Positions 12,789-24,518 are shown, numbered from the stretch's first letter. The stretch is DNA of 64,000 nt from Planctomycetota bacterium (GCA_965223265.1 OZ244999.1:3008001-3072000); one strand, 5' to 3'. Made by a program: numbers and translations. Notes: generated from the letters alone by a model not told the origin.

Positions 12789-13078
12789 GGATACTAGCGT
12801 ACTGACTTACCAGCAGAGCGTCCATGGCGCAATCGGTTGGCAATCATCGCGCGTCGGGATCGGATGTGATCTTTTCGCCACCTGTTGCCGCCTGCTAGAG
12901 ACTCCATGCGTGATGGTTGCATTGCGAGGACGATGTTTGGGAGACTTCAGAACTTGGTGACGCGCTGGCGCAGCGGCTCACGTAGGGTGTTTGGCCTGGC
13001 GAAACTCGCATGAATCCCTCACGACGAGCGGGCACCGCGCGGTACACTGTCGCCCTTTCGTGCGGACTATCAGGAACC

Positions 13079-14560
13079 ATGACAGCAGCTAACGACCAGC
13101 GATTTCCCCGCCTCGGTTCTATGACTTGCGAGGAGTTCAAACGTCACCTCGCCGTGTGCGCGGCGGACGTCCCGTGCGACGAGCGCATCTTACGAGGTGA
13201 GGAGTCGCCCTTGGCGGCGCCTTTGAAGTTCGGCCCACTCACCGTCGGCAATCGCTGGGTGGTGCATCCGATGGAGGGTTGGGACGGCACGGCTGAAGGC
13301 GGCCCGGGCGAATTGACGCTGCGGCGTTGGCAACACTTCGGCGAGAGCGGGGCCAAGTTGATCTGGGGCGGAGAAGCGGTCGCGGTGCGCTACGACGGAC
13401 GCGCCAATCCTCATCAACTCGTCTGCGTCGAGGCGACGGAGGCGGGGCTCGCACGCCTTCGCAACACACTGATCGGGGCGCATTCAACCCGCTTCGGCGG
13501 CACGGACGGACTGGTCGTCGGCCTGCAACTGACGCACTCGGGACGCTTCGCGCGGCCGAACGAAAAGACGAAGCCGGAACCGCGGGTTGCTTACCGCCAC
13601 CCGATTCTAGACCGGCGAGTGGGTATTGCGAGCGACGACGCGGTGCTGTCGGATGCCGAAGTCGACGATCTCATTGGCGATTTCGCCGCCGCAGCGAAGC
13701 GTGCTGAAGAGATCGGTTTTTCGTTTGTCGATATCAAGCACTGCCACGGGTATCTGCTGCATGAGTTTCTTGGCGCGCACACGCGGCCTGGCCGCTACGG
13801 AGGTTCCTTTGAGAATCGAACGCGCCTCTTGCGAGAACTCATCGCAGCGGTGCGGCGTGAAGCGCCGAGTTTGGAGGTATGCATTCGGGTCAGTATCTTT
13901 GACATGGTGCCGTTTCGGCCCGATCCAGCCCTCTCCGAAGGCAAGCGGCTTGGGCCAGGAATTCCGGAGGACGTCTCGCACTGCCTACCGTATCGCTACG
14001 GCTTCGGCGTGGATCAGCAAGATCCATCACAGCCGGACCTGAGCGAAGGTCGGAGGCTCTTGGCGCTTTTAGGGGAGCTCGGTGTGCAGCTCGTGAGTCT
14101 CTCTGCCGGCAGTCCTTACTACAACCCGCATATGCAGCGCCCCGCGCTTTATCCTCCGTCGGACGGCTATCAGCCACCGGAGGACCCGCTCGTTGGTGTC
14201 GCGCGCCATCTGTGTGCTGTCCGTGACTTGAAGCGCGACTTTCCGAATCTCATGATGGTCGGCACTGCGTTGAGTTACTTGCAAGACTACCTGCCGCACG
14301 TCGCTCAGGCGATCGTTCGCAACGGGTGGATGGACGCCGTCGGTCTCGGACGCATGATCCTGTCGTACTGGGATCTGCCAGCGGATACCCTGGAGCGCGG
14401 TGAGCTGAAGCGAAAGCGCGTTTGTCGGACGTTTAGCGACTGCACGACGGCGCCACGAAATGGCCTCGTCAGTGGTTGCTACCCGTTGGATTCCGACTAC
14501 GCTGGATTGCCGGAAGCGAAGGAGCTGCGCGCGATCAAGTCGGGAAGGAGTCGCGGCTAG
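13079..14560 (+). CDS. NADH:flavin oxidoreductase (Old Yellow Enzyme family)
   Basis: NRWVVHPMEG, QLTHSGR and GFSFVDIKHCHGYLLHEFL...YGGSFENRTR motifs. The stop codon TAG is part of the CTAG at the left boundary of the downstream MITE. Confidence 0.9.
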   Translation: MTAANDQRFPRLGSMTCEEFKRHLAVCAADVPCDERILRGEESPLAAPLKFGPLTVGNRWVVHPMEGWDGTAEGGPGELTLRRWQHFGESGAKLIWGGEAVAVRYDGRANPHQLVCVEATEAGLARLRNTLIGAHSTRFGGTDGLVVGLQLTHSGRFARPNEKTKPEPRVAYRHPILDRRVGIASDDAVLSDAEVDDLIGDFAAAAKRAEEIGFSFVDIKHCHGYLLHEFLGAHTRPGRYGGSFENRTRLLRELIAAVRREAPSLEVCIRVSIFDMVPFRPDPALSEGKRLGPGIPEDVSHCLPYRYGFGVDQQDPSQPDLSEGRRLLALLGELGVQLVSLSAGSPYYNPHMQRPALYPPSDGYQPPEDPLVGVARHLCAVRDLKRDFPNLMMVGTALSYLQDYLPHVAQAIVRNGWMDAVGLGRMILSYWDLPADTLERGELKRKRVCRTFSDCTTAPRNGLVSGCYPLDSDYAGLPEAKELRAIKSGRSRG

Positions 14561-14764
14561 CCCGCATTTCTCACAAGATTTCGTAGCGAGGTGCCGTAAG
14601 TCGTGTCGTGGCAAGGAAGGCTTTGCGATTCGACTGTTGAGTCCGACCGAGGAGGGAGGACGAAAGTGCTTCCTGCACATTGAGGATCGAATCGTGAAGC
14701 CTGACGCAGTCCACGACGCGACTTACGGTGCCGCAGTAGGAATCTTGTGAGAAATGCGGGTTAG
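14557..14764. mobile_element. MITE-like palindromic element A (~208 bp), bounded by CTAG/TTAG
   Basis: Left end ctagcccgcatttctcacaagatt matches the reverse complement of right end aatcttgtgagaaatgcgggttag (1 mismatch); inner arms ccgtaagtcgtgtcgtgg / ccacgacgcgacttacgg; no transposase. Confidence 0.75.
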
Positions 14765-14927
14765 CAGCCCGTTGAAAAAGTCATTCGGCCGAGAAACTGG
14801 CCTCTTCACGCCCAGATCGACCGCGGCGAGCCTCGAAAATCTCGGAGATTACCTACGTTCGCCGCGGCCGATCTGGACGCGAAGCGACCAGTTTTCGACT
14901 CGAAGCACTTTTTCAACAGGCTGTTAG
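14761..14927. mobile_element. MITE B, copy 1 (159-bp body, TTAG flanks)
   Basis: TIRs cagcccgttgaaaaag / ctttttcaacaggctg, flanked by ttag on both sides; near-identical copy at 27780-27946. Confidence 0.9.
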
Positions 14928-14966
14928 ATTCGGACCATTCGCTGACAATGGAGGCCGCCGCTGGCC

Positions 14967-16118
14967 ATGACCGACGGTGTGACAGTCCGTTCGACCGATA
15001 GAGCCGTGGAAGTCGCCTACTTCAGCGCACTCTGCGGGGATGACTACGAGTTTTTAGGCGTGCCGTCCGGGACGCTTCGCAGCAGTTGGGATCACTGCCG
15101 CAGCATCACGCTCAAGGCGGATCGACTCGGTTTCAATAACATCTTGCTGCCGAACTCCTATGTCCCGGGTCAAGACACGCTGACGTTCGCCGGCGGTATG
15201 GCTGCTCTGGTCGAGAAGATCTCACTTCTCGTGGCCGTACGCTGTGGGGAGTATCACCCGCCCATGTTGGCGCGCGCGATCGCAAGCTTGGACCATATGC
15301 TTGAGGGGCGTTTGACGCTCAACATCATTTCGTCGGATATGCCCGGTACGACACTGCCGGCAGCGGCGCGCTATGCACGATCGCGTGAGGCGATTCAGAT
15401 CCTGAAGCAGGCATGGACGCAGGAACGGATCCGTTTCCGCGGCGAGTTCTATGATTTCGACCTGCCGGCGGACCCCGCCAAGCCGTTTCAACAGAGCGGC
15501 GGTCCGCTTCTTTACTTCGGCGGTATCTCCGACCCGGCGCGGGACCTTTGCGCTGAGCACTGCGACGTCTTTCTCATGTGGCCGGAAACGGAGGCCAATC
15601 TACGCACGACCATGGTAGACATGTCGCGTCGCGCAGAGGCGTACGGACGTCGCATCGACTTCGGTCTCCGAATCCACATGATCGTGCGGCAGACTGAATC
15701 GGAGGCGCGCGCCGCGGCGCGGCGATTGGTGTCGAAACTGGACGACGCCATCGGCGCTCAGATCAAAGGGCGCGCCCAGGATGCTCAGTCGCTCGGCGTC
15801 CGGCGTCAGGACGCACTGCGGGCGGCAGCCGATGCCGAGGGGTTTATTGAGCCGCTCGTTTGGTCTGGCATAGGCCGCGCGCGTTCAGGGTGTGGAAGCG
15901 CGCTCGTCGGTGACCCCGACCAGGTCACGGCGAAGATCGAACGTTACATCGACATGGGCATGCGTGCGTTCATCTTTTCCGGGTATCCACACCTCGACGA
16001 GTGCGGGCTGTTGGCGCGGTACATCCTCCCACGACTGAAGACTTGCAAGCTCGCTCACCGGCAGGGTCGTATCGTGGATGACCCAGTAACTCCACTCACG
16101 ACGGGGAAGCGAACGTGA
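14967..16118 (+). CDS. LLM-class flavin-dependent monooxygenase, probable sulfoquinovose monooxygenase (SmoC/SquD-like)
   Basis: [65 protein letters not shown] and [11 protein letters not shown] match my recollection of SQ monooxygenases. The LLM fold is secure; the substrate is inferred. Confidence 0.75.
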
Positions 16119-17569
16119 CGCAACCGCCGGAGACTTCAGGGCGTTGGTATGCCGCGGTGACGCGTTATCAGTGGACGGTCCTCGCGATTGCATCCCTGGG
16201 GTGGGTGTTCGATGTCTTCGAGGGGCAGATTTTCGTCGCTTCGATGAATGAAGCTCTGCCGTCGCTGCTTCCCGCTGACGCGAGGCAGCGCGTGGAGCTC
16301 TACAACAGGTTCGCTCTGGCCGCGTTCCTACTGGGGGGCGCGTGCGGCGGTGTGCTGTTCGGCGTCCTCAGTGACCGCATCGGTCGAGTCAAGACCATGA
16401 CTCTCACGATTCTCGTCTACTCGCTGTTCACGGCACTCACCGCATTCGTCGACGATTGGCGACAGATGGTGGTGCTGCGTTTCGTCGTCGCTTTGGGCGT
16501 CGGTGGCGAGTGGGCTGTCGCGAGCACGCTCGTCGCTGAAGTCTTTCCGCGCCGAGCGCGAGCGTGGGTCGGTTCGATTTTTCACGCCTCGAGTGTTGTG
16601 GGTGTCTATTTAGCCGTCGCAGTCGGCATGTTCATTGTCGCAAATGAACGCCTTGGCTGGCGCTGGGGCTTCGCCGTCGGCGCGTTACCTGCACTTCTGA
16701 CGCTGTGGATTCGCTGGCGGCTCAAGGAACCCGAGGCTTGGGTGGCGTCACGTTCGAGGACGGTCGCGGATTCTGTGAAGCAGCGCCGCGGCGGACGAGT
16801 CGGTGAGCTTTTCAGCCGCCAGCTGATTCTCCGCACCATGGTCGGAGTCGTTTTGGCGGCGACGGGAATGGCGACATTTTGGGGGGTGCACATCTACGGT
16901 AGGAACGTCCTCAAACGAAGCGCCGAGCGACAATGGGACGAGCGGGCTGCGGGATTGCGAGCTGAGGTCGTATCGCCTCCTTTCCAGGACGGAACCGAAA
17001 GTGACAACGACGCCGGGGCTGAAACCGCGGCACCGGCGCCACCTGGGACGAAGGTCGAGAGCAGTGCGAAAACGCGCGCGCTGAAGAATGCCGAGATGCT
17101 GGGGATGCTGCTCGCTGCGACCGGCGGTGGGCTCGGGCTGTTTCTTTTCGGCTGGTTCGCGAACCGTCTCGGACGCCGCTGGGCGTTCGGTCTCTTTCAC
17201 ATCGGCGGCCTGGTCGCGGCGCTTCTTCTCTTCAACGTGTTCTATGATGCGTCGCCAATCACCGTGAGCGTCGCGCTGATCGTTTTCGGTTTCCTCACGG
17301 TCGGCATGCACGCCGGCTACGCGATCTACTTCCCCGAGCTCTTCCCAACGCGCCTTCGCGGCACTGGTGCCGGCTTTTGTTTCAACATCGGGCGGGTATT
17401 CGCCGCGCCGATTCTTATCCTTGGTGGCTGGCTGCAGTCCGAAGGCGGGTTGACGCTGCCACAGACCACAAGTCTCTTGAGCTTGCTCTACATCGTCGGC
17501 CTCGTGACGCTCTTCGTCGCTCCGGAGACTCGCGGGGTGGAGCTCGAGGAGTCCGGCAGCGCGGAGTAG
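16115..17569 (+). CDS. MFS transporter
   Basis: About 12 hydrophobic segments; [17 protein letters not shown] and [11 protein letters not shown] motifs; GTGA overlap with the upstream stop. Confidence 0.92.
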
Positions 17570-17621
17570 TTCCGCATCGAACAGGACGACCCGCAGGTCG
17601 TGTGCGTGTGGATCTCCCAAA

Positions 17622-18725
17622 GTAGCAGGCACACGCCGTGTGCCGTCCGGACGTGAGCGTGGGCGTGAGCGTGACCGCCTCTTCAACGTAGCAGGCACAC
17701 GCCGTGTGCCGTCCGGCCTTGTCGACGTGAGCGTGAGCGTGGGCGTGGGCGCCTCTTCAACGTAGCAGGCACACGCCGTGTGCCGTTCTGGAGGTGACCG
17801 CCGACTGTGACTGTGACCGCGCGTCGTCATCGCTCGTTCTCAAGAACTCCCAGCCTCTCCGTGTGCCGTCCGGCCTTGTCGACGTGAGCGTGAGCGTGGG
17901 CGTGGGCGCCTCTTCAACGTAGCAGGCACACGCCGTGTGCCGTTCTGGAGGTGACCGCCGACTGTGACTGTGACCGCGCGTCGTCATCGCTCGTTCTCAA
18001 GAACTCCCAGCTTCTCCGTGTGCCGTCCGGCCTTGTCGACGTGACCGTGAGCGTGACCGTGACCGCCTCTTCAACGTAGCAGGCACACGCCGTGTGCCGT
18101 TCTGGAGGTGACCGCCGACTGTGACTGTGACCGCGCGTCGTCATCGCTCGTTCTCAAGAACTCCCAGCCTCTCCGTGTGCCGTCCGGCCTTGTCGAGGTG
18201 AGCGTGAGCGTGAGCGTGAGCGTGAGCGTGACCGCCTCTTCAACGTAGCAGGCACACGCCGTGTGCCGTCCGGCCTTGTCGACGTGAGCGTGAGCGTGGG
18301 CGTGAGCGTGGGCGTGGGCGCCTCTTCAACGTAGCAGGCACACGCCGTGTGCCGTTCTGGAGGTGACCGCCGACTGTGACTGTGACCGCGCGTCGTCATC
18401 GCTCGTTCTCAAGAACTCCCAGCCTCTCCGTGTGCCGTCCGGCCTTGTCGACGTGAGCGTGAGCGTGGGCGTGGGCGCCTCTTCAACGTAGCAGGCACAC
18501 GCCGTGTGCCGTTCTGGAGGTGACCGCCGACTGTGACTGTGACCGCGCGTCGTCATCGCTCGTTCTCAAGAACTCCCAGCCTCTCCGTGTGCCGTCCGGC
18601 CTTGTCGACGTGAGCGTGAGCGTGGGCGTGGGCGCCTCTTCAACGTAGCAGGCACACGCCGTGTGCCGTCCGGCCTTGTCGACGTGAGCGTGAGCGTGAG
18701 CGTGGGCGTGGAGCATGAGCGTGAG
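17622..18725 (+). repeat. Tandem array of nine GTAG-type REP hairpins with hexamer VNTR linkers
   Basis: gtagcaggcacacgccgtgtgccgt starts at 17622, 17688, 17762, 17919, 18076, 18245, 18331, 18488 and 18645; periods 66, 74, 157, 157, 169, 86, 157, 157. Confidence 0.92.
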
Positions 18726-18794
18726 TTGCGGCGGGTGCCGCCCGGTCTTGTGAGTGTGATTGCGATCGCGTGTGAGAGTGCCTCCTCCCCCGCT

Positions 18795-18880
18795 CCGGCG
18801 TCTGCTTCTGCCTCCGCTTCTGTCATCTGCCTCTGCCATCCGTCTCCGTCTCTGCCTCTGCCTCTGTCTCTGTCTCCTCC
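18795..18880. repeat. Pyrimidine-rich hexamer tract (TCTGCC/TCTGTC)n
   Basis: tctgcttctgcctccgcttctg...tctgcctctgcctctgtctctgtctcc read directly. Confidence 0.7.
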
Positions 18881-18926
18881 GCTAGAATCCCATGCGCCTC
18901 GCACAGCCCCTTGGTAAACTACCGCG

Positions 18927-19997
18927 ATGCAACACAACACGGTTCGCTTCGGACTCGTAGGCTACGGCCTCTTCGGAAAACATCACGCTGCGGCGATCGC
19001 CTCCGCCGAGGGTGGTTCGCTCGCAGCCGTCTGCGCTCCTTCGAGCGCCAGCCAGGGCGCTGCTACAGCCGCACACCCCGGTGCGTTCGTCTGCGCCGAC
19101 TATCGACAGCTCATCCGCCGCGACGACATCGACGTTGTCGATGTGGCGGCGCCGAATCATCTTCACTACGAGATCGCTGTCGCGGCGTTGAACGCGGACA
19201 AGCACGTCTTCCTCGAGAAGCCGATGGCGCTTTGCGTTCGCGAGCTCGACGAACTGGTTGCGGTTGCTGCGGCGCGGCGGCGGCTTCTTGCGATCAATCA
19301 CGAGCTTCGCCTGTCGCGGCTGTGGGGCGGTGTCAAGGAGCTCATCGACCGGGGCGTCATCGGCACGCCACGCTATGCTCTCGTCGAACTCTCGAGATTT
19401 CCCTATCGCCAAGGTGCAGACGGTTGGCGTTACGATACCGCCCGCGTTGGCAGTTGGATTCTTGAAGAGCCGATCCATTTTTTCGATCTGGCCTGTTGGT
19501 ACTTGGCATCGTGCGGCGTACCCGAATCGATCGATGCGGCCGCAAGCGCTCGCGACGGACGGCACGAACTCGAGCGCAGCGACAATTTCTCAGCGCTCGT
19601 CCGCTGGAAGAACGGAGCCTACGCCGTCGTCTCCCAGACGCTGGCGGCATTCGGACATCATGTCACAGCGAAGGTTGCCGGTGAGAAAGGCACGATTTGG
19701 GCGCGGTGGTCGGCGCCGGACGCACGTTCCTCCGCGCCCCAGTTTGAGCTGCGTTACGGGCTTGGAGACGTTGTGCAGGAGGTGGCATTCGCTGCCGTGA
19801 CCGGGGAGCTCGTCGAGCTCGCCGACCACGTCGCCGCTATCATTCAGTGCGTGAAGCACGCTGAGTCGCCACCGTGCAGCGCCGTCGACGGCCGCTTGTC
19901 ATCCTTGCTCTGCCTCGCCGCGCTTGAGTCGGCGCGGCGGTGCGCTCCCGTAGCTCTGGAAGACTTCGCTGCGGCGGGCGGTCCCGCCGCGCCCTGA
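18927..19997 (+). CDS. Gfo/Idh/MocA family oxidoreductase
   Basis: RFGLVGYGLFG, DIDVVDVAAPNHLH, KHVFLEKPMA and IHFFDL motifs. Confidence 0.92.
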   Translation: MQHNTVRFGLVGYGLFGKHHAAAIASAEGGSLAAVCAPSSASQGAATAAHPGAFVCADYRQLIRRDDIDVVDVAAPNHLHYEIAVAALNADKHVFLEKPMALCVRELDELVAVAAARRRLLAINHELRLSRLWGGVKELIDRGVIGTPRYALVELSRFPYRQGADGWRYDTARVGSWILEEPIHFFDLACWYLASCGVPESIDAAASARDGRHELERSDNFSALVRWKNGAYAVVSQTLAAFGHHVTAKVAGEKGTIWARWSAPDARSSAPQFELRYGLGDVVQEVAFAAVTGELVELADHVAAIIQCVKHAESPPCSAVDGRLSSLLCLAALESARRCAPVALEDFAAAGGPAAP

Positions 19998-20056: not shown

Positions 20057-20848
20057 TCACAGACACGTCCAGCCGCCGTCGACCATCAAGTTCGCGCCGG
20101 TGATGTAAGCTGATGCGTCTGACGCCAAGAACACAGCCGCACCCTTGACGTCTTCGTTTTCGAGCATGCGACCGATCGGCACGCGCTTCGAATACTCGCT
20201 GAGGAACGGCTCTTCCTGGTGGTTGAAGTAGCCTCCCGGGCTGATGCAGTTGGCGCGGACGCCTTTCTTACCGTAGTAGCACGCGAGGTAGCGTGTGAAG
20301 TTGATCATGCCGGCTTTGACGAAGTTGTAGCTCGGCGGTTGCTTCATACTCGTGCCGACGTAGAGGTTCGGATCATTGGCGACGACCCCGTAGATGCTGG
20401 ATATGTTGACGATCGAGCCGCGTCCCTGTTCAACCATGTCGCGGATGAAGAGCTGGCAAATGTGCAGTAGGCCGACGAAGTCGCCGTCGCCGCTGCGCGA
20501 CCAGATCTCCGGCGATTGCTCTTCGAAGCCGCCGCCCGTGTGGCCGTCGCGCGCAAGAGCGCTGTTCACCAGGACGTCTATGCGTCCAAAACGGCTGATG
20601 ACCTCCTTGTGAAGGCGTTCGATCGATTCGGTGTTCCCGATGTCGAGCTCGAAACCGTGAGCCTCGTAGCCGCTCGCCCGGAGACGCTCGGCAAACTCCT
20701 CGTTGGCGGGTAGCGATCTGGAGGCCGTGATGACCGTCGCGCCAGCTTCCGCCAGTGCTTCGCTGATGCTGCTGCCGAAAAGAGGTCCAGCGCCGGCAGT
20801 GACAAGAGCTATGCGGCCGTCAAGCGAGAAACGATCGAGGATTGCCAT
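20057..20848 (-). CDS. SDR family oxidoreductase
   Basis: IALVTAGAG, GSIVNISSIYG, YNFVK (YxxxK), VRANCISPGG and NLMVDGG motifs. Confidence 0.93.
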   Translation of the reverse strand: MAILDRFSLDGRIALVTAGAGPLFGSSISEALAEAGATVITASRSLPANEEFAERLRASGYEAHGFELDIGNTESIERLHKEVISRFGRIDVLVNSALARDGHTGGGFEEQSPEIWSRSGDGDFVGLLHICQLFIRDMVEQGRGSIVNISSIYGVVANDPNLYVGTSMKQPPSYNFVKAGMINFTRYLACYYGKKGVRANCISPGGYFNHQEEPFLSEYSKRVPIGRMLENEDVKGAAVFLASDASAYITGANLMVDGGWTCL

Positions 20849-21018
20849 GTGTCTCTCCGTCTTTCTCCGAGTCTTTTCCTTTGTTTTCTTTTCGCGAGGT
20901 TGCGGACGCAGGATTGCCAGTCGGTTACGATACCGAGCCGCGTGCGGAGTGGAGAGCGGATTCTCCTCAGTTCCGTCCAGGTCACATGAACCAGCCGCTG
21001 GGAGGATTGAGACTCAGG

Positions 21019-21789
21019 ATGCGTAGCAGTAAGACACTTGCCAAGCTTCGCGAGGGAAAACCCGTCCGCATCTGCGCTCTGGGTCATTTCATTCCGCCCT
21101 ACATCCGTCTCGCCGCCGCCAGTGGCTTTGATTGCATTTGGCTCGATCTCGAGCATCGCGCGTTCGACCCGCGCGAGGTGCAGTCGCTACTGGCGTTCTT
21201 TCACCTTTTTGACGTCGATTGCATGCTGCGGCCAGCGACTATCGAGAAGACGCCACTCTACCGCTACCTCGAGGACGGAGCCTCCGGATTGATGATTCCT
21301 CACGTGTCGACTCCGGAGAGGGCAGAGGAGATCGTGCGGTCAGTCCGTTTCCCGCCAGAGGGCGACCGCGGCCTCGACGGCGCCGGCCTCGACAGCGACT
21401 TTATCTTTCAGGGCGGTGAGCCGTATCCGCCGGCAGCGAATCGCGAGACGTTCTTGGTCGTGCAGATCGAGACGCCTGAGGCGATCGACAACGTCGAAGC
21501 GATCGCGGCGATCCCGGGCGTCGATGGGCTCTTCGTTGGTCCCGGCGACCTCGGACTGCGCCTGCGGCAGCTCGCTGCGGCTGCGACGCTTGACGACGCG
21601 ATCGAGCACGTTGCGGCGGCCGCATCCAAGCATGGCAAAGCGTGGGGAAGTCCTGTCGCTACTTCAGAGCAACTTCGCTCGCGCCGCGAACAAGGGGCGC
21701 AGTTGCTGGCGCGGGGCGGCGACTTCATGGCGCTGAAGGAAGCTCTCGAGCGTTGGGCGGCTGATTTCGACGAGTGCGGCGACGCATGA
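21019..21789 (+). CDS. HpcH/HpaI (2-keto-3-deoxy acid) aldolase family protein
   Basis: FDCIWLDLEH, RFPPEGDRG, VVQIET and DGLFVGPGDL motifs; ATG 21019 after GGAGG. Confidence 0.9.
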   Translation: MRSSKTLAKLREGKPVRICALGHFIPPYIRLAAASGFDCIWLDLEHRAFDPREVQSLLAFFHLFDVDCMLRPATIEKTPLYRYLEDGASGLMIPHVSTPERAEEIVRSVRFPPEGDRGLDGAGLDSDFIFQGGEPYPPAANRETFLVVQIETPEAIDNVEAIAAIPGVDGLFVGPGDLGLRLRQLAAAATLDDAIEHVAAAASKHGKAWGSPVATSEQLRSRREQGAQLLARGGDFMALKEALERWAADFDECGDA

Positions 21790-24518
21790 GGTGCGCGTGG
21801 CGTGCGGATGCTTGCGTCGGCGCCGGTCGTTCGCTGCGGCTGCCCATCTTATGGCTGTTACTTGTCACTGCCTGGTGGGTAGCCGGCGACCACGGTGCTG
21901 TCTGGGCTCAAGCTGAAGCGGGGCCCACGAAACGGATGTCCAGGTCGGCGAGTTCGGAGACGGACTTGGCGGCACCACACGCCATCGAGTGGAGCCACTC
22001 CACTCCTTTGCCGCGCGCCCTCGTGGGGCACTTCGCCGGCATCGTTACCTGGGGAGAGGACGGCGAGAAGCCGCTGCGTCGAGCGCTCGTCGTCGCCGGT
22101 GGGACTGGCTTCGAGGCTGTTCCTGGGGGAAGCGGCCGCCGTCGGGAATGGTACGACGCCGTCGCCGTCCTTCCAGAAGGTGCAGCCGAGTGGTCGAGCG
22201 GATTCGCCCTTGCTCGCTCGCTCGCCCACGGCGTCAGCATCGCTACGGCCGATCATCGCCTCGTCTGCATCGGGGGCGGGGACGATCGCTCGCACTCGCG
22301 CGAGGTGATCGCGCTGGGCTGGGACGGCGAGAACCTTAGCACGCAAGCCTTGCCGCCGCTGCCGCGACCGTGCGCGTTCATGGCCGGCGCGTTGGTTGGT
22401 GAGGCGATCTACGTTGCGGCCGGGCAGGAAAGTCCATCGTCTCCCGCGCCGTTCAAGGCGTTCTGGCGTCTTGCGCTCAAGCCGAAAGAGAATGGAGAGT
22501 GGGGGTGGGAGGAGCTCGCGCCGTGGCCGGGGGAGGCGCGCACCCACGCGATCGCGGCTGCACTTGGCAGCACGTTCTTCTTGGCTGGCGGCAGTCGCGC
22601 GCCAGGCGAAGCCGAAGTCGCGGCCGACGATTTCCTTCGCGAAGCGTACCGCTATTCGCCCTCTCCGCAGGGTGGGAAGTGGGAGCGGACCGCTGACCTG
22701 CCGTATGGTGTGGCCGCGGCGCCCGCGCACGGCGTCGGCAGCACTCACGTCTTCGTTTTCGGCACCACTCTCGCGCCACCGGTGAGCGCGGCTACTCGGG
22801 CGCGCGAGAACGCTACAGAGCGCCGCTACGAGGTTCTCGCCTACGAGGCGGTAACGGACACGTGGCGTGCTTTCGGGTCGGCACCGCGAAGCCTTGCCGC
22901 TGCCCCGCTCCTTATGTGGCGGCACGAAGGGCGCGAGTACTCCTTCTTGTTCGCGGGTGGCCGCGGTCGAGACGATCAACCGACGCAAGAGGCTGTGTTC
23001 GCCGAGATCGCGAGCGACCCGGCGACCTTTCAGTTCCTCGACTACGCCGCACTGGTTGCTTACCTGCTGGCGATGATCGCCATGGGGCTCTACTTCGCGC
23101 GTCGCGGCAAGACGACGCAGGATTTCTTTCTCGCCGGGCGTCGCATTCCGTGGTGGGCGGCGACTCTCAGTATCTTCAGCACGCAGCTCAGCGCCATCAC
23201 CTTCATGGCGATCCCTGGGAAGGCGTTCGCGACGAATTGGGTGTCGATGCTGATGAACCTGGGTATCGTTCTTTCAGCCCCACTCGTGGTGTTTTGGTTC
23301 TTGCCGTTTTTTCGTCGCCTCAACGTGACGACCGCGTACGAGTATCTCGAGAGGCGCTTTAGCGCTCCGATTCGACTCTACGGCAGCCTCGCGTTTATTG
23401 TCTATCAACTTGGGCGCATGGGAATTGTCCTTTTCCTGCCGTCTCTGGCGCTCTCGACCGTCACTGGATTCGACGTCTACGCTTGCATCGTGATCTTGGG
23501 TGTTTTGTGCACGATCTACACCGTGCTCGGCGGCATTGAGGCTGTGGTCTGGACCGATGTGCTGCAGACGTTCGTTCTTCTCGGCGGTGCGCTCCTTTGC
23601 CTCGGAGTCGTGATCACCAGCCTCGACGGCGGCCTCAGCGAAATCTTTGCGGTTGCACACCGAAGTGGAAAACTTCAGACGATCGAATGGTCAGGCGGGC
23701 TCACCTCGACGGTGTATTGGGTCGTCATCGTCGGTGGCCTCTTCACGCAGCTCATTCCCTACTGTTCTGATCAGTCCGTGATTCAGCGCTTCTTGACGAC
23801 GCCGACGGAGAAGGCGGCGGCGCGTTCCATTTGGATTCACGCCGTCATGGTGGTTCCATCTTCGCTCCTTTTCTTTGGGGTCGGCACGGCGCTATTCGTC
23901 TTCTACCAGTCGCGTCCTGAGCTCTTGAATCCGACGTCTGCATCGAGCGACGACATCTTCCCTTGGTTCATTGCCAACGAATTGCCCGCGGGTCTTTCGG
24001 GTATCGTGATTGCTGGGCTCTTTGCTGCGACGATGTCGAGCGTCGATAGCAGCATGAACAGTATTGCAACGGTGCTCGTGACGGACTTCTACCGTCGTTT
24101 TCGGCCGCATGCTGACGACCATCGTTGTCTCAACTTGGCGCGATCGCTCACGATCATCATCGGAGTCTTCGCGACGGCAGCAGCGGTGCTCATCGGGCTT
24201 CTCAACGCTGAGTCGCTTTGGGACCTCTTTCTCAAGAACGCGGGACTTCTCGGGAGCAGCCTGGCGGGTATTTTTCTTCTGGGCGTTCTGACGCAGCGTG
24301 CGAACACCGGTGGGACCGTCATCGGGGCGCTCTGCAGCATCGGGACGCTGGCATGGATCCAACGACTTGAACCGCAGCCGATCAATGGCTATCTGTACGC
24401 CGTGGTTGGCATCCTCGTCTGCGTCGGCGTTGGCTACGCGGCCAGCTGGTTGTTCCCAGCGCCGGGGGAGAGGATCGAAGGGCTGACCGTAGCGACTGTA
24501 CGGCCGCCGAGCGATTGA
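21786..24518 (+). CDS. Kelch beta-propeller (NanM-like) fused to sodium:solute symporter (SiaT-like)
   Basis: N-terminal kelch repeats (LVVAGG, LVCIGG, IYVAAG, FFLAGG, WEELAPWP); SSS motifs DFFLAGRRIPWW, TAYEYLERRF, AVVWTD, DQSVIQRF; ATGA overlap with the aldolase stop. Confidence 0.9.
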   Translation: MRCAWRADACVGAGRSLRLPILWLLLVTAWWVAGDHGAVWAQAEAGPTKRMSRSASSETDLAAPHAIEWSHSTPLPRALVGHFAGIVTWGEDGEKPLRRALVVAGGTGFEAVPGGSGRRREWYDAVAVLPEGAAEWSSGFALARSLAHGVSIATADHRLVCIGGGDDRSHSREVIALGWDGENLSTQALPPLPRPCAFMAGALVGEAIYVAAGQESPSSPAPFKAFWRLALKPKENGEWGWEELAPWPGEARTHAIAAALGSTFFLAGGSRAPGEAEVAADDFLREAYRYSPSPQGGKWERTADLPYGVAAAPAHGVGSTHVFVFGTTLAPPVSAATRARENATERRYEVLAYEAVTDTWRAFGSAPRSLAAAPLLMWRHEGREYSFLFAGGRGRDDQPTQEAVFAEIASDPATFQFLDYAALVAYLLAMIAMGLYFARRGKTTQDFFLAGRRIPWWAATLSIFSTQLSAITFMAIPGKAFATNWVSMLMNLGIVLSAPLVVFWFLPFFRRLNVTTAYEYLERRFSAPIRLYGSLAFIVYQLGRMGIVLFLPSLALSTVTGFDVYACIVILGVLCTIYTVLGGIEAVVWTDVLQTFVLLGGALLCLGVVITSLDGGLSEIFAVAHRSGKLQTIEWSGGLTSTVYWVVIVGGLFTQLIPYCSDQSVIQRFLTTPTEKAAARSIWIHAVMVVPSSLLFFGVGTALFVFYQSRPELLNPTSASSDDIFPWFIANELPAGLSGIVIAGLFAATMSSVDSSMNSIATVLVTDFYRRFRPHADDHRCLNLARSLTIIIGVFATAAAVLIGLLNAESLWDLFLKNAGLLGSSLAGIFLLGVLTQRANTGGTVIGALCSIGTLAWIQRLEPQPINGYLYAVVGILVCVGVGYAASWLFPAPGERIEGLTVATVRPPSD

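Follow-up and report, generated by a model that had tools for sequence, protein, structure and literature searches.

A probable sulfoquinovose monooxygenase module combining a SmoC-type enzyme, an MFS transporter and a Gfo/Idh/MocA oxidoreductase in a planctomycete

We analyzed a set of genes predicted to act on the sulfosugar sulfoquinovose (SQ) in a 64,000-nucleotide stretch of a Planctomycetota genome (GCA_965223265.1, OZ244999.1:3008001-3072000), hereafter the window, from whose first letter all positions are counted. An earlier note on this DNA had placed four co-oriented genes and one opposing gene here, and its gene placement was borne out: we verified the open reading frame (ORF) of each, with Pfam support for every family. 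On the forward strand lie an old yellow enzyme (OYE)-like NADH:flavin oxidoreductase, probably outside the module (13010-14560 or 13079..14560; Pfam Oxidored_FMN, partial); a luciferase-like monooxygenase (LLM) predicted to be a SmoC-type FMNH2-dependent SQ monooxygenase (14967..16118; 383 amino acids; Bac_luciferase PF00296, 172 bits); a major facilitator superfamily (MFS) transporter of organic-anion/H+ symporter type, a probable SQ importer (16115..17569; Pfam MFS_1/Sugar_tr); and GfoA, a cytoplasmic Gfo/Idh/MocA oxidoreductase and probable 6-dehydroglucose reductase (18927..19997; Pfam GFO_IDH_MocA plus C-terminal domains). A short-chain dehydrogenase/reductase (SDR; 20057-20848; Pfam adh_short_C2) follows on the opposite strand. 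The last 4 nt of the LLM gene are also the first 4 nt of the MFS gene, and a simple promoter and terminator scan of the locus returned nothing exceeding shuffled controls. The host genome is a single contig of 9.18 Mb, 91.65% complete by marker genes, and its planctomycete origin fits both the closest LLM relatives and the markers of the Planctomycetota-Verrucomicrobiota-Chlamydiota (PVC) type in the window (TIGR02604, DUF1501, PSCyt/PSD1).

We compared the LLM with all PDB sequences and found its best matches to be 7OH2 (468 bits) and 7OLF (466 bits), which are RoSmoC and the SmoC of Agrobacterium tumefaciens, respectively (Sharma et al. 2022, PMC8795539). SsuD/MsuD entries scored no more than 214 bits (7jv3, 214 bits; 1m41, Escherichia coli SsuD, 191 bits), and identity to the characterized SmoC enzymes is ~60%. 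SmoC is described as acting on SQ, with SQ-glycerol and HEPES not accepted, and as recognizing its substrate through the constellation Trp206-Arg236-His238-Tyr341-His343 (PMC8795539). All five of these residues are kept in the window LLM, where W205, R235, H237, Y340 and H342 correspond to RoSmoC W206, R236, H238, Y341 and H343. The SsuD equivalog (NCBIfam TIGR03565) was rejected for the LLM, which reached 248.3 bits against a cut-off of 518.2 bits; the true SsuD rows P0146 and P0151 reached 586 and 605 bits on the same model. The LLM is single copy in the host genome, and we found no SsuD-like paralogue there at E ≤ 1e-5.

We then placed the LLM in a maximum-likelihood tree, run in a careful and also a quick version, of 56 rows of our own choosing (28 of the 80 loci described below, 4 plasmid loci and 23 full-length cluster representatives). 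The window LLM falls within an eight-row Planctomycetota clade (support 100/99), itself nested in a 33-row clade (100/99) that contains the LLMs of Ruegeria TM1040 and Rhizobium SL42, and a Novosphingobium LLM, from a cluster with GH31 and an aldo-keto reductase (AKR), is the next sister to that larger clade (100/96). A branch of length 1.1 (100/100) divides the SmoC-like group from rows including two NCBIfam-verified SsuD equivalogs. Clustering with SsuD, the outcome that the earlier note had named as speaking against its assignment to the SmoC/SquD subfamily, was thus not seen when this phylogeny was run on 14967-16118, and the PDB scores, the five SQ residues, the tree and the sub-threshold SsuD score all uphold that assignment. 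As judged from sequence, the LLM is a predicted SmoC-type SQ monooxygenase.

Two further placements concern the spread of this family. The Pirellulaceae LLMs of L065 and L068 group with an Opitutus LLM, away from the main planctomycete clade (SH-aLRT 100, quick tree), pointing to movement of the cluster from one PVC phylum to another. On a Spirosoma oryzicola plasmid (NZ_CP089541.1, L086), a SmoC-like LLM 58.7% identical to that of the window is surrounded by SusC/SusD, an amidohydrolase, an amino-acid permease, a cytochrome c and a SoxC sulfite dehydrogenase, with no sugar genes, a context suggestive of another sulfonated substrate in Bacteroidota.

We next examined which genes accompany the LLM in related genomes. 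A scan with one genome per species gave 482 relatives; neighbours were called by tblastn with a query coverage of at least 50% in the best 80 of these loci, a set biased toward kin of the window LLM. Represented among these 80 loci are Planctomycetota, Verrucomicrobiota, Myxococcota, Spirochaetota, Bacteroidota, Hydrogenedentota and others, and one of the carriers is a cultured strain, Chthoniobacter flavus Ellin428 (L026). The description of the oxidative SQ route as known mainly from Alphaproteobacteria is therefore true of the literature and does not extend to the LLM family itself, which is broad (482 relatives, the best 80 spread over the phyla just listed). The MFS gene stands beside the LLM in 37 of the 80 loci and GfoA in 23, at 46-63% identity to the window protein; two Gfo matches (L023, L033) were not counted as GfoA, being GH188-like and 46% identical to Ruegeria SqgA. 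Other partners were a SmoB-like AKR (22-23 loci), a ROK regulator (21), an SsuE-like FMN reductase (7) and GH31, with one convincing case (L027, 52%) and two weak ones. Among the 15 loci labelled Planctomycetota, MFS occurs in 13 and GfoA in 6 (partial in L010), and no flavin reductase was found in the planctomycete loci examined by Pfam. LLM, MFS and GfoA genes are contiguous in L005, L007 and L020. We conclude from these gene contexts that LLM-MFS, often with GfoA, is the conserved unit across phyla, an association that is not chance.

The same comparison separates the other two neighbours from this unit. The OYE gene was found in only one of the 80 loci (L018; 31% identity, ~10 kb away), and the SDR in none of 83 loci in an unfiltered run. 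The synteny that the earlier note had expected is accordingly present for the MFS and Gfo/Idh/MocA genes and missing for OYE and SDR; its suggestion that the SDR might reduce the product found no backing in these loci, and we conclude that both genes are likely bystanders.

Verrucomicrobial SmoC-like loci have a distinct composition. L042, L071, L082, L074, L070, L034 and L053 carry a BT_2158-like Gfo dehydrogenase of ~450-500 amino acids ("GfoB"), mostly also with a YeiH-type "sulfate exporter", and in L042, L053, L071, L074 and L082 a gene for a sugar-isomerase-like TIM-barrel protein directly follows the LLM. These GfoB/TIM-barrel loci may encode an oxidative route from glycosides to free SQ.

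We characterized GfoA as a family from 23 sequences (alignment A1). It is a tight subfamily, with a mean column identity of 69% and invariant features that include EKP, H125-E126-x-R128, R157-x-P-Y160, GWRYD and LEEPIHFFD. A profile search of the PDB found no solved structure close to it: inositol dehydrogenase 4hkt led at 130 bits, with 3ezy, 3q2k and 1,5-anhydro-D-fructose reductase (AFR; 105 bits) also among the matches, and the GH188 structure 8qc2 came sixth at 100 bits. The structure model (pLDDT 89.2) returned the common family fold in Foldseek searches of the PDB, with near-equal and so non-discriminating matches to AFR (2glx; TM 0.83, rmsd 3.0) and SqgA (8qc5; TM 0.82). The cofactor site is more informative. 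At the position taken by Asp in the NAD-dependent enzymes 4hkt, 3ezy and 3q2k and by Glu in SqgA, GfoA has Ala or Val, and its [K/R/P]-S...R/Q pattern aligns with the S-T-S-A-E-R stretch of AFR. AFR depends on NADPH. By these residues the GfoA cofactor site is of predicted NADP(H) type, and the lack of an acidic residue, as in AFR, points to a reductive, NADPH-using role. GfoA is single copy in the host genome, with no second GfoA.

GfoA proteins were also considered as GH188 sulfoquinovosidases, an identity we rejected on sequence, residue and profile tests alike. GfoA is 24% identical to Ruegeria SqgA, and the window protein scores 61 bits to 8qc3 versus 89 bits for its top PDB match, while a true GH188 member reaches 387 bits (8qc2). 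The catalytic and sulfonate-binding residues reported for ArSqgA are Lys107, Tyr136, Arg166, Lys172, Glu189 and His193 (PMC10755693). By a hand-counted pairwise alignment, K98, R157, E180 and H184 of the set are retained, whereas Tyr136 is replaced by Leu, Met or Phe in all 23 GfoA sequences and Lys172 by Gly.

To test GfoA more widely, we searched an evenly drawn sample of 401 Planctomycetota genomes for GfoA, SmoC-like LLM and SqoD-like TauD. GfoA orthologues (334-585 bits) were present in 15 genomes, SmoC-like LLMs in 2 and SqoD-like TauD, to which the SQ dioxygenase MaSqoD comes closest among PDB entries (9YUT, 259 bits), in 15. An LLM or a TauD was found in 11 of the 15 genomes with GfoA versus 6 of the 386 without. 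In five TauD-GfoA clusters (G222, G390, G339, G253, G238) GfoA lies within ~3 kb of TauD, adjoining it in G222 and G390; MFS is present in four of the five, a NagC/Mlc-like ROK regulator in all and a TauE sulfite exporter in three, and no AKR was found in the 13-17 kb fetched around GfoA. G414 has GfoA facing a ROK-AKR-LLM-MFS operon, and one genus has an MFS-GfoA pair with TauD unlinked in 3 of 5 genomes. Where TauD occurs without GfoA, four genomes have an aldose-reductase-like AKR adjoining TauD. Clusters centred on a SqoD homologue and GfoA have the order ROK-TauD-GfoA-MFS-TauE in L124 (5664-11176) and L127, with some members absent in L129, L130 and L125.

GfoA and MFS thus accompany both the LLM and TauD, and would serve two non-homologous enzymes that each make 6-dehydroglucose and sulfite from SQ. 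We looked for the more familiar components in the host. The earlier note had seen no flavin reductase, AKR or GH31, which holds for the window; for GH31 (PF01055) and the flavin reductase domain PF01613 it extends to the whole 9.18-Mb genome. For Ruegeria SmoB the genome offers nothing closer than 31-33% identity, at a site far from the window, no orthologue of the TauD-linked aldose-reductase-like AKR was found in the host, and the best match to SqgA is the window Gfo protein itself at 25-27% identity. With the queries used, the host genome also gave no match for SqoD-like TauD, TauE, a YeiH-type exporter, SoxC, SmoA or GH31. The alternation of AKR and GfoA beside TauD, together with the lack of such an AKR or a close SmoB in the host, favors GfoA as the 6-dehydroglucose reductase; with a fold unlike that of an AKR, it would be a non-homologous replacement. 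A strict rule in which one always replaces the other was rejected, as both co-occur in several loci.

Combining these observations, we lean with modest confidence toward a compact, non-canonical sulfolytic SQ module of LLM, MFS and GfoA that would carry out import, C-S cleavage and reduction of 6-dehydroglucose. As a proton symporter, the MFS protein would bring in the anionic sugar SQ in its free form. In NCBIfam it comes closest to H+ symporter subfamilies (aromatic acid, metabolite and sialate), under cut-off in every case, and its orthologue also stands beside SqoD-like TauD and GfoA in other Planctomycetota, so that a role as SQ importer is probable. Free SQ is the expected substrate since no sulfoquinovosidase (GH31 or GH188) was found in the genome. 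The SmoC-type LLM, with FMNH2 and O2, would oxidize C6 of SQ, with sulfite and 6-dehydroglucose as products, a reaction we infer from the ~60% identity to characterized SmoC enzymes and the five conserved SQ-recognition residues. Cytoplasmic GfoA, with NADPH, would then convert 6-dehydroglucose to glucose in place of the AKR SmoB/SquF, as its gene associations and cofactor site indicate, and FMNH2 would come from a reductase unlinked to the module. The locus as a whole is a real and probably functional SQ monooxygenase module.

Several observations weigh against this scheme. At the locus itself, a 1.26-kb repeat array sits between the MFS and GfoA genes, an interruption lacking from the three contiguous loci named above. 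No flavin reductase is linked to the LLM, PF01613 being without a match in the whole genome, and the queries used found no sulfite exporter or sulfite oxidase in the host. Among relatives, the counts come from related genomes that are not independent, and the 80 loci were selected for their similarity to the window LLM; GfoA and AKR are both missing from many LLM-MFS loci, and several verrucomicrobial LLM loci have GfoB and the TIM-barrel gene in place of either. AKR and GfoA are also not clearly exclusive. The two occur together close to the LLM in five GfoA loci out of 23 (L036, L043, L046, L064, L066) and in G414, and an AKR stands beside the LLM in 5/23 loci with GfoA versus ~17/57 without. 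An AKR lies 3 kb from GfoA in G190 and elsewhere in the genomes of G222, G390 and G339. Four of the 15 GfoA genomes (G004, G006, G043, G366) showed no LLM and no TauD, and in G366 GfoA is accompanied by a 3-keto-disaccharide hydrolase and a GfoB-like gene. Finally, Gfo/Idh/MocA enzymes usually act on ring carbons and not on a C6 aldehyde.

The co-occurrence of GfoA with a SmoB-like AKR, as if the two had independent functions, is what would be expected if the LLM and MFS acted as proposed and GfoA worked before C-S cleavage, on SQ or a derivative. GfoA would then be a 3-keto-SQ reductase or a partner in oxidative (3-keto) release of SQ, leaving 6-dehydroglucose to an unlinked enzyme. This accords with GfoA being the best match among the Gfo paralogues of the genome to true GH188 SqgA (53.6 bits), with the presence in both of the E...HFFDL block and of the sulfonate-binding Arg (Arg166 of ArSqgA), and with its position next to GfoB in L124, L127, L129 and L130 and next to the hydrolase in G366. 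The distance from SqgA documented above, in overall identity, in PDB scores and at the Tyr136 and Lys172 positions, argues the other way, as do the lack, in the cofactor site, of the acidic residue that NAD+-holding enzymes typically have and the absence of GfoB and of the sugar-isomerase-like TIM-barrel gene beside the window cluster; we consider this alternative unlikely. A further reading, which we rate as less likely still, would give PVC bacteria a third, split "sulfoquinovosidase". GfoB would oxidize SQ glycosides at C3, the TIM-barrel protein or the 3-keto-disaccharide hydrolase would cleave off the aglycone, and GfoA, with NADPH, would restore SQ from 3-keto-SQ. If true, three proteins would do the job of GH188, and the one module would feed a monooxygenase of SmoC type or a dioxygenase of SqoD type.

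We also considered whether the LLM acts on a sulfonate other than SQ, for instance a different sulfosugar or an amino compound carrying a sulfonate, with MFS and GfoA serving that substrate. The Spirosoma plasmid LLM, which at 58.7% identity lies amid non-sugar genes, and the lack of a sulfoquinovosidase in the host would both suit such a role. It is nevertheless hard to reconcile with the conservation of all five SQ-recognition residues, the nesting of the LLM among LLMs from canonical smo clusters, the presence of GfoA and MFS beside a homologue of a structurally characterized SQ dioxygenase, and the recurrence of sugar-type (NagC/Mlc-like ROK) regulators in these clusters, and we judge it improbable.

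The earlier note had named the neighbouring OYE-family flavoprotein as the source of FMNH2 for the LLM. Its gene occurs once in the genome and lies 406 nt upstream of the LLM in the same orientation, in a host that has neither a PF01613 flavin reductase nor a match to the LLM-linked SsuE-like reductase of Verrucomicrobiota. The proposal did not hold up across relatives: the OYE is missing near the LLM in 79 of the 80 loci, the single match being weak, and no match was found in 21 further GfoA or TauD loci, so that it shows no conserved linkage as a flavin reductase partner. Its family is also large, with >8000 homologues scored in many phyla without SmoC. Two palindromes of repeat families separate the OYE and LLM genes, and other possible flavin reductases occur elsewhere in the host, namely two FMN_red genes (PF03358, >1.6 Mb distant) and two nitroreductase-family genes. 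OYEs, moreover, bind their FMN tightly. Taken together, we consider it very doubtful that the OYE fills this role.

This family of ~490-residue proteins is uncharacterized. Pfam Oxidored_FMN matches the 516-residue ORF with 83 bits over residues 68-300 only, and a further short C-terminal match near 429-457 implies an insertion of ~130 residues. The best 120 homologues, from Planctomycetota, Armatimonadota, Latescibacteria and others, are 447-579 residues long (mostly 476-500) and 59-72% identical. Those of 476-500 residues cover 92-95% of the ORF, and these lengths and this coverage fit the later of the two start sites, 13079, which is in frame with 13010.

Repeats are prominent on both sides of the LLM-MFS pair. 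Between the OYE and LLM genes lie two large palindromic elements resembling miniature inverted-repeat transposable elements (MITEs; 14553..14926, inverted repeats I1-I3). A 205-bp MITE-like element within this stretch (14561-14765) has 49 genome matches, a count that takes in the query itself and numerous hits that are partial or run arm to arm; roughly twelve extend over most of the element with 70-95% identity, the best other copy at 95%. Between the MFS and GfoA genes, Tandem Repeats Finder and inspection of the sequence delimit a palindromic repeat array of REP-like type (17618..18876), which has a 157-nt period with runs of the hexamer GTGAGC and a hairpin core, GGCACAC-GCC-GTGTGCC. A 25-nt core of the array occurs in 126 genome copies (78 forward, 48 reverse; none for the reversed control), often in tandem clusters elsewhere. 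Beyond the SDR, an HpcH/HpaI aldolase gene overlaps a gene for a 914-residue fusion of a Kelch/NanM-type mutarotase and a sodium:solute symporter (window 20842-24518), and these genes with the divergent SDR look like a separate sugar-acid uptake unit.

SQ is an abundant plant and algal sulfosugar, with a production put at ~10 billion tonnes per year. A 2026 survey in ISME J (PMC13372026) scores a genome as sulfo-SMO-positive only if SmoB and SmoC are co-located, and names Pseudomonadota, Actinomycetota and Spirochaetota; the table of a 2026 review lists sulfo-ASMO for Alpha- and Betaproteobacteria and sulfo-ASDO for Gammaproteobacteria. The strings "Planctomycet" and "Verrucomicrob" are absent from the main texts of PMC13372026, PMC13436972, PMC12780224, PMC8795539 and PMC10755693, and "Planctomycet" is absent from PMC12890257. 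Among the papers listed for SQ with Planctomycetota or Verrucomicrobiota, or for 6-dehydroglucose with MocA, we found no such cluster described. A rule based on SmoB and SmoC would miss a module of SmoC or SqoD with MFS and GfoA and without an AKR. On this evidence Planctomycetota and Verrucomicrobiota become likely SQ desulfonators. Members of both are frequent on algae and in soil. The comparison also singles out a well-conserved Gfo/Idh/MocA subfamily, GfoA, with a directly testable function.

Lastly, we compared the locus with known systems. The nearest is the sulfo-SMO cluster of A. tumefaciens C58 (smoA-I; PMC8795539), which shares the key LLM enzyme type, at 466-468 bits and with the same five residues. 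Unlike that cluster, the window cluster has no SmoA-type flavin reductase, SmoB AKR, GH31 SmoI or ABC importer, and MFS and Gfo/Idh/MocA genes occupy the place of those partners; a linked flavin reductase, a linked AKR and a GH31 or GH188 enzyme, the marks of a canonical sulfo-SMO cluster, were each looked for here and not found. The smo clusters with GH188 of the Ruegeria TM1040 megaplasmid and Rhizobium SL42 (Kaur et al. 2023, PMC10755693) share the 33-row LLM clade and also have an adjoining Gfo-fold gene. The Ruegeria gene is, however, the true GH188 with 387 bits to 8qc2, from which the window Gfo, 24% identical, differs in having neither the catalytic Tyr nor an acidic residue of NAD type. 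Further annotated members of these clusters are an AKR, a flavin reductase, a TRAP transporter and a GntR regulator.

For GfoA, AFR (2glx, 4koa) is among the best sequence and fold matches and has a similar cofactor site without Asp, but it is only 22-24% identical and its substrate is a ring ketone, not a C6 aldehyde; in the D/ExxxH motif, GfoA has Glu where the Gfo/Idh/MocA family usually has Asp. The remaining parallel is sulfo-SDO, represented by MaSqoD (9YUT-9YUX, PMC12951627). The published sulfo-SDO organisms treated there are Gammaproteobacteria with GH188 or GH31 sulfoquinovosidases (PMC12951627). Other Planctomycetota pair GfoA, mostly with MFS, with SqoD-like TauD, for which the window genome has no match. 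The core pathway is already known; the point of note is the GfoA-MFS accessory pair, which, as predicted from gene content, SmoC-type and SqoD-type sulfolysis have in common in PVC bacteria.

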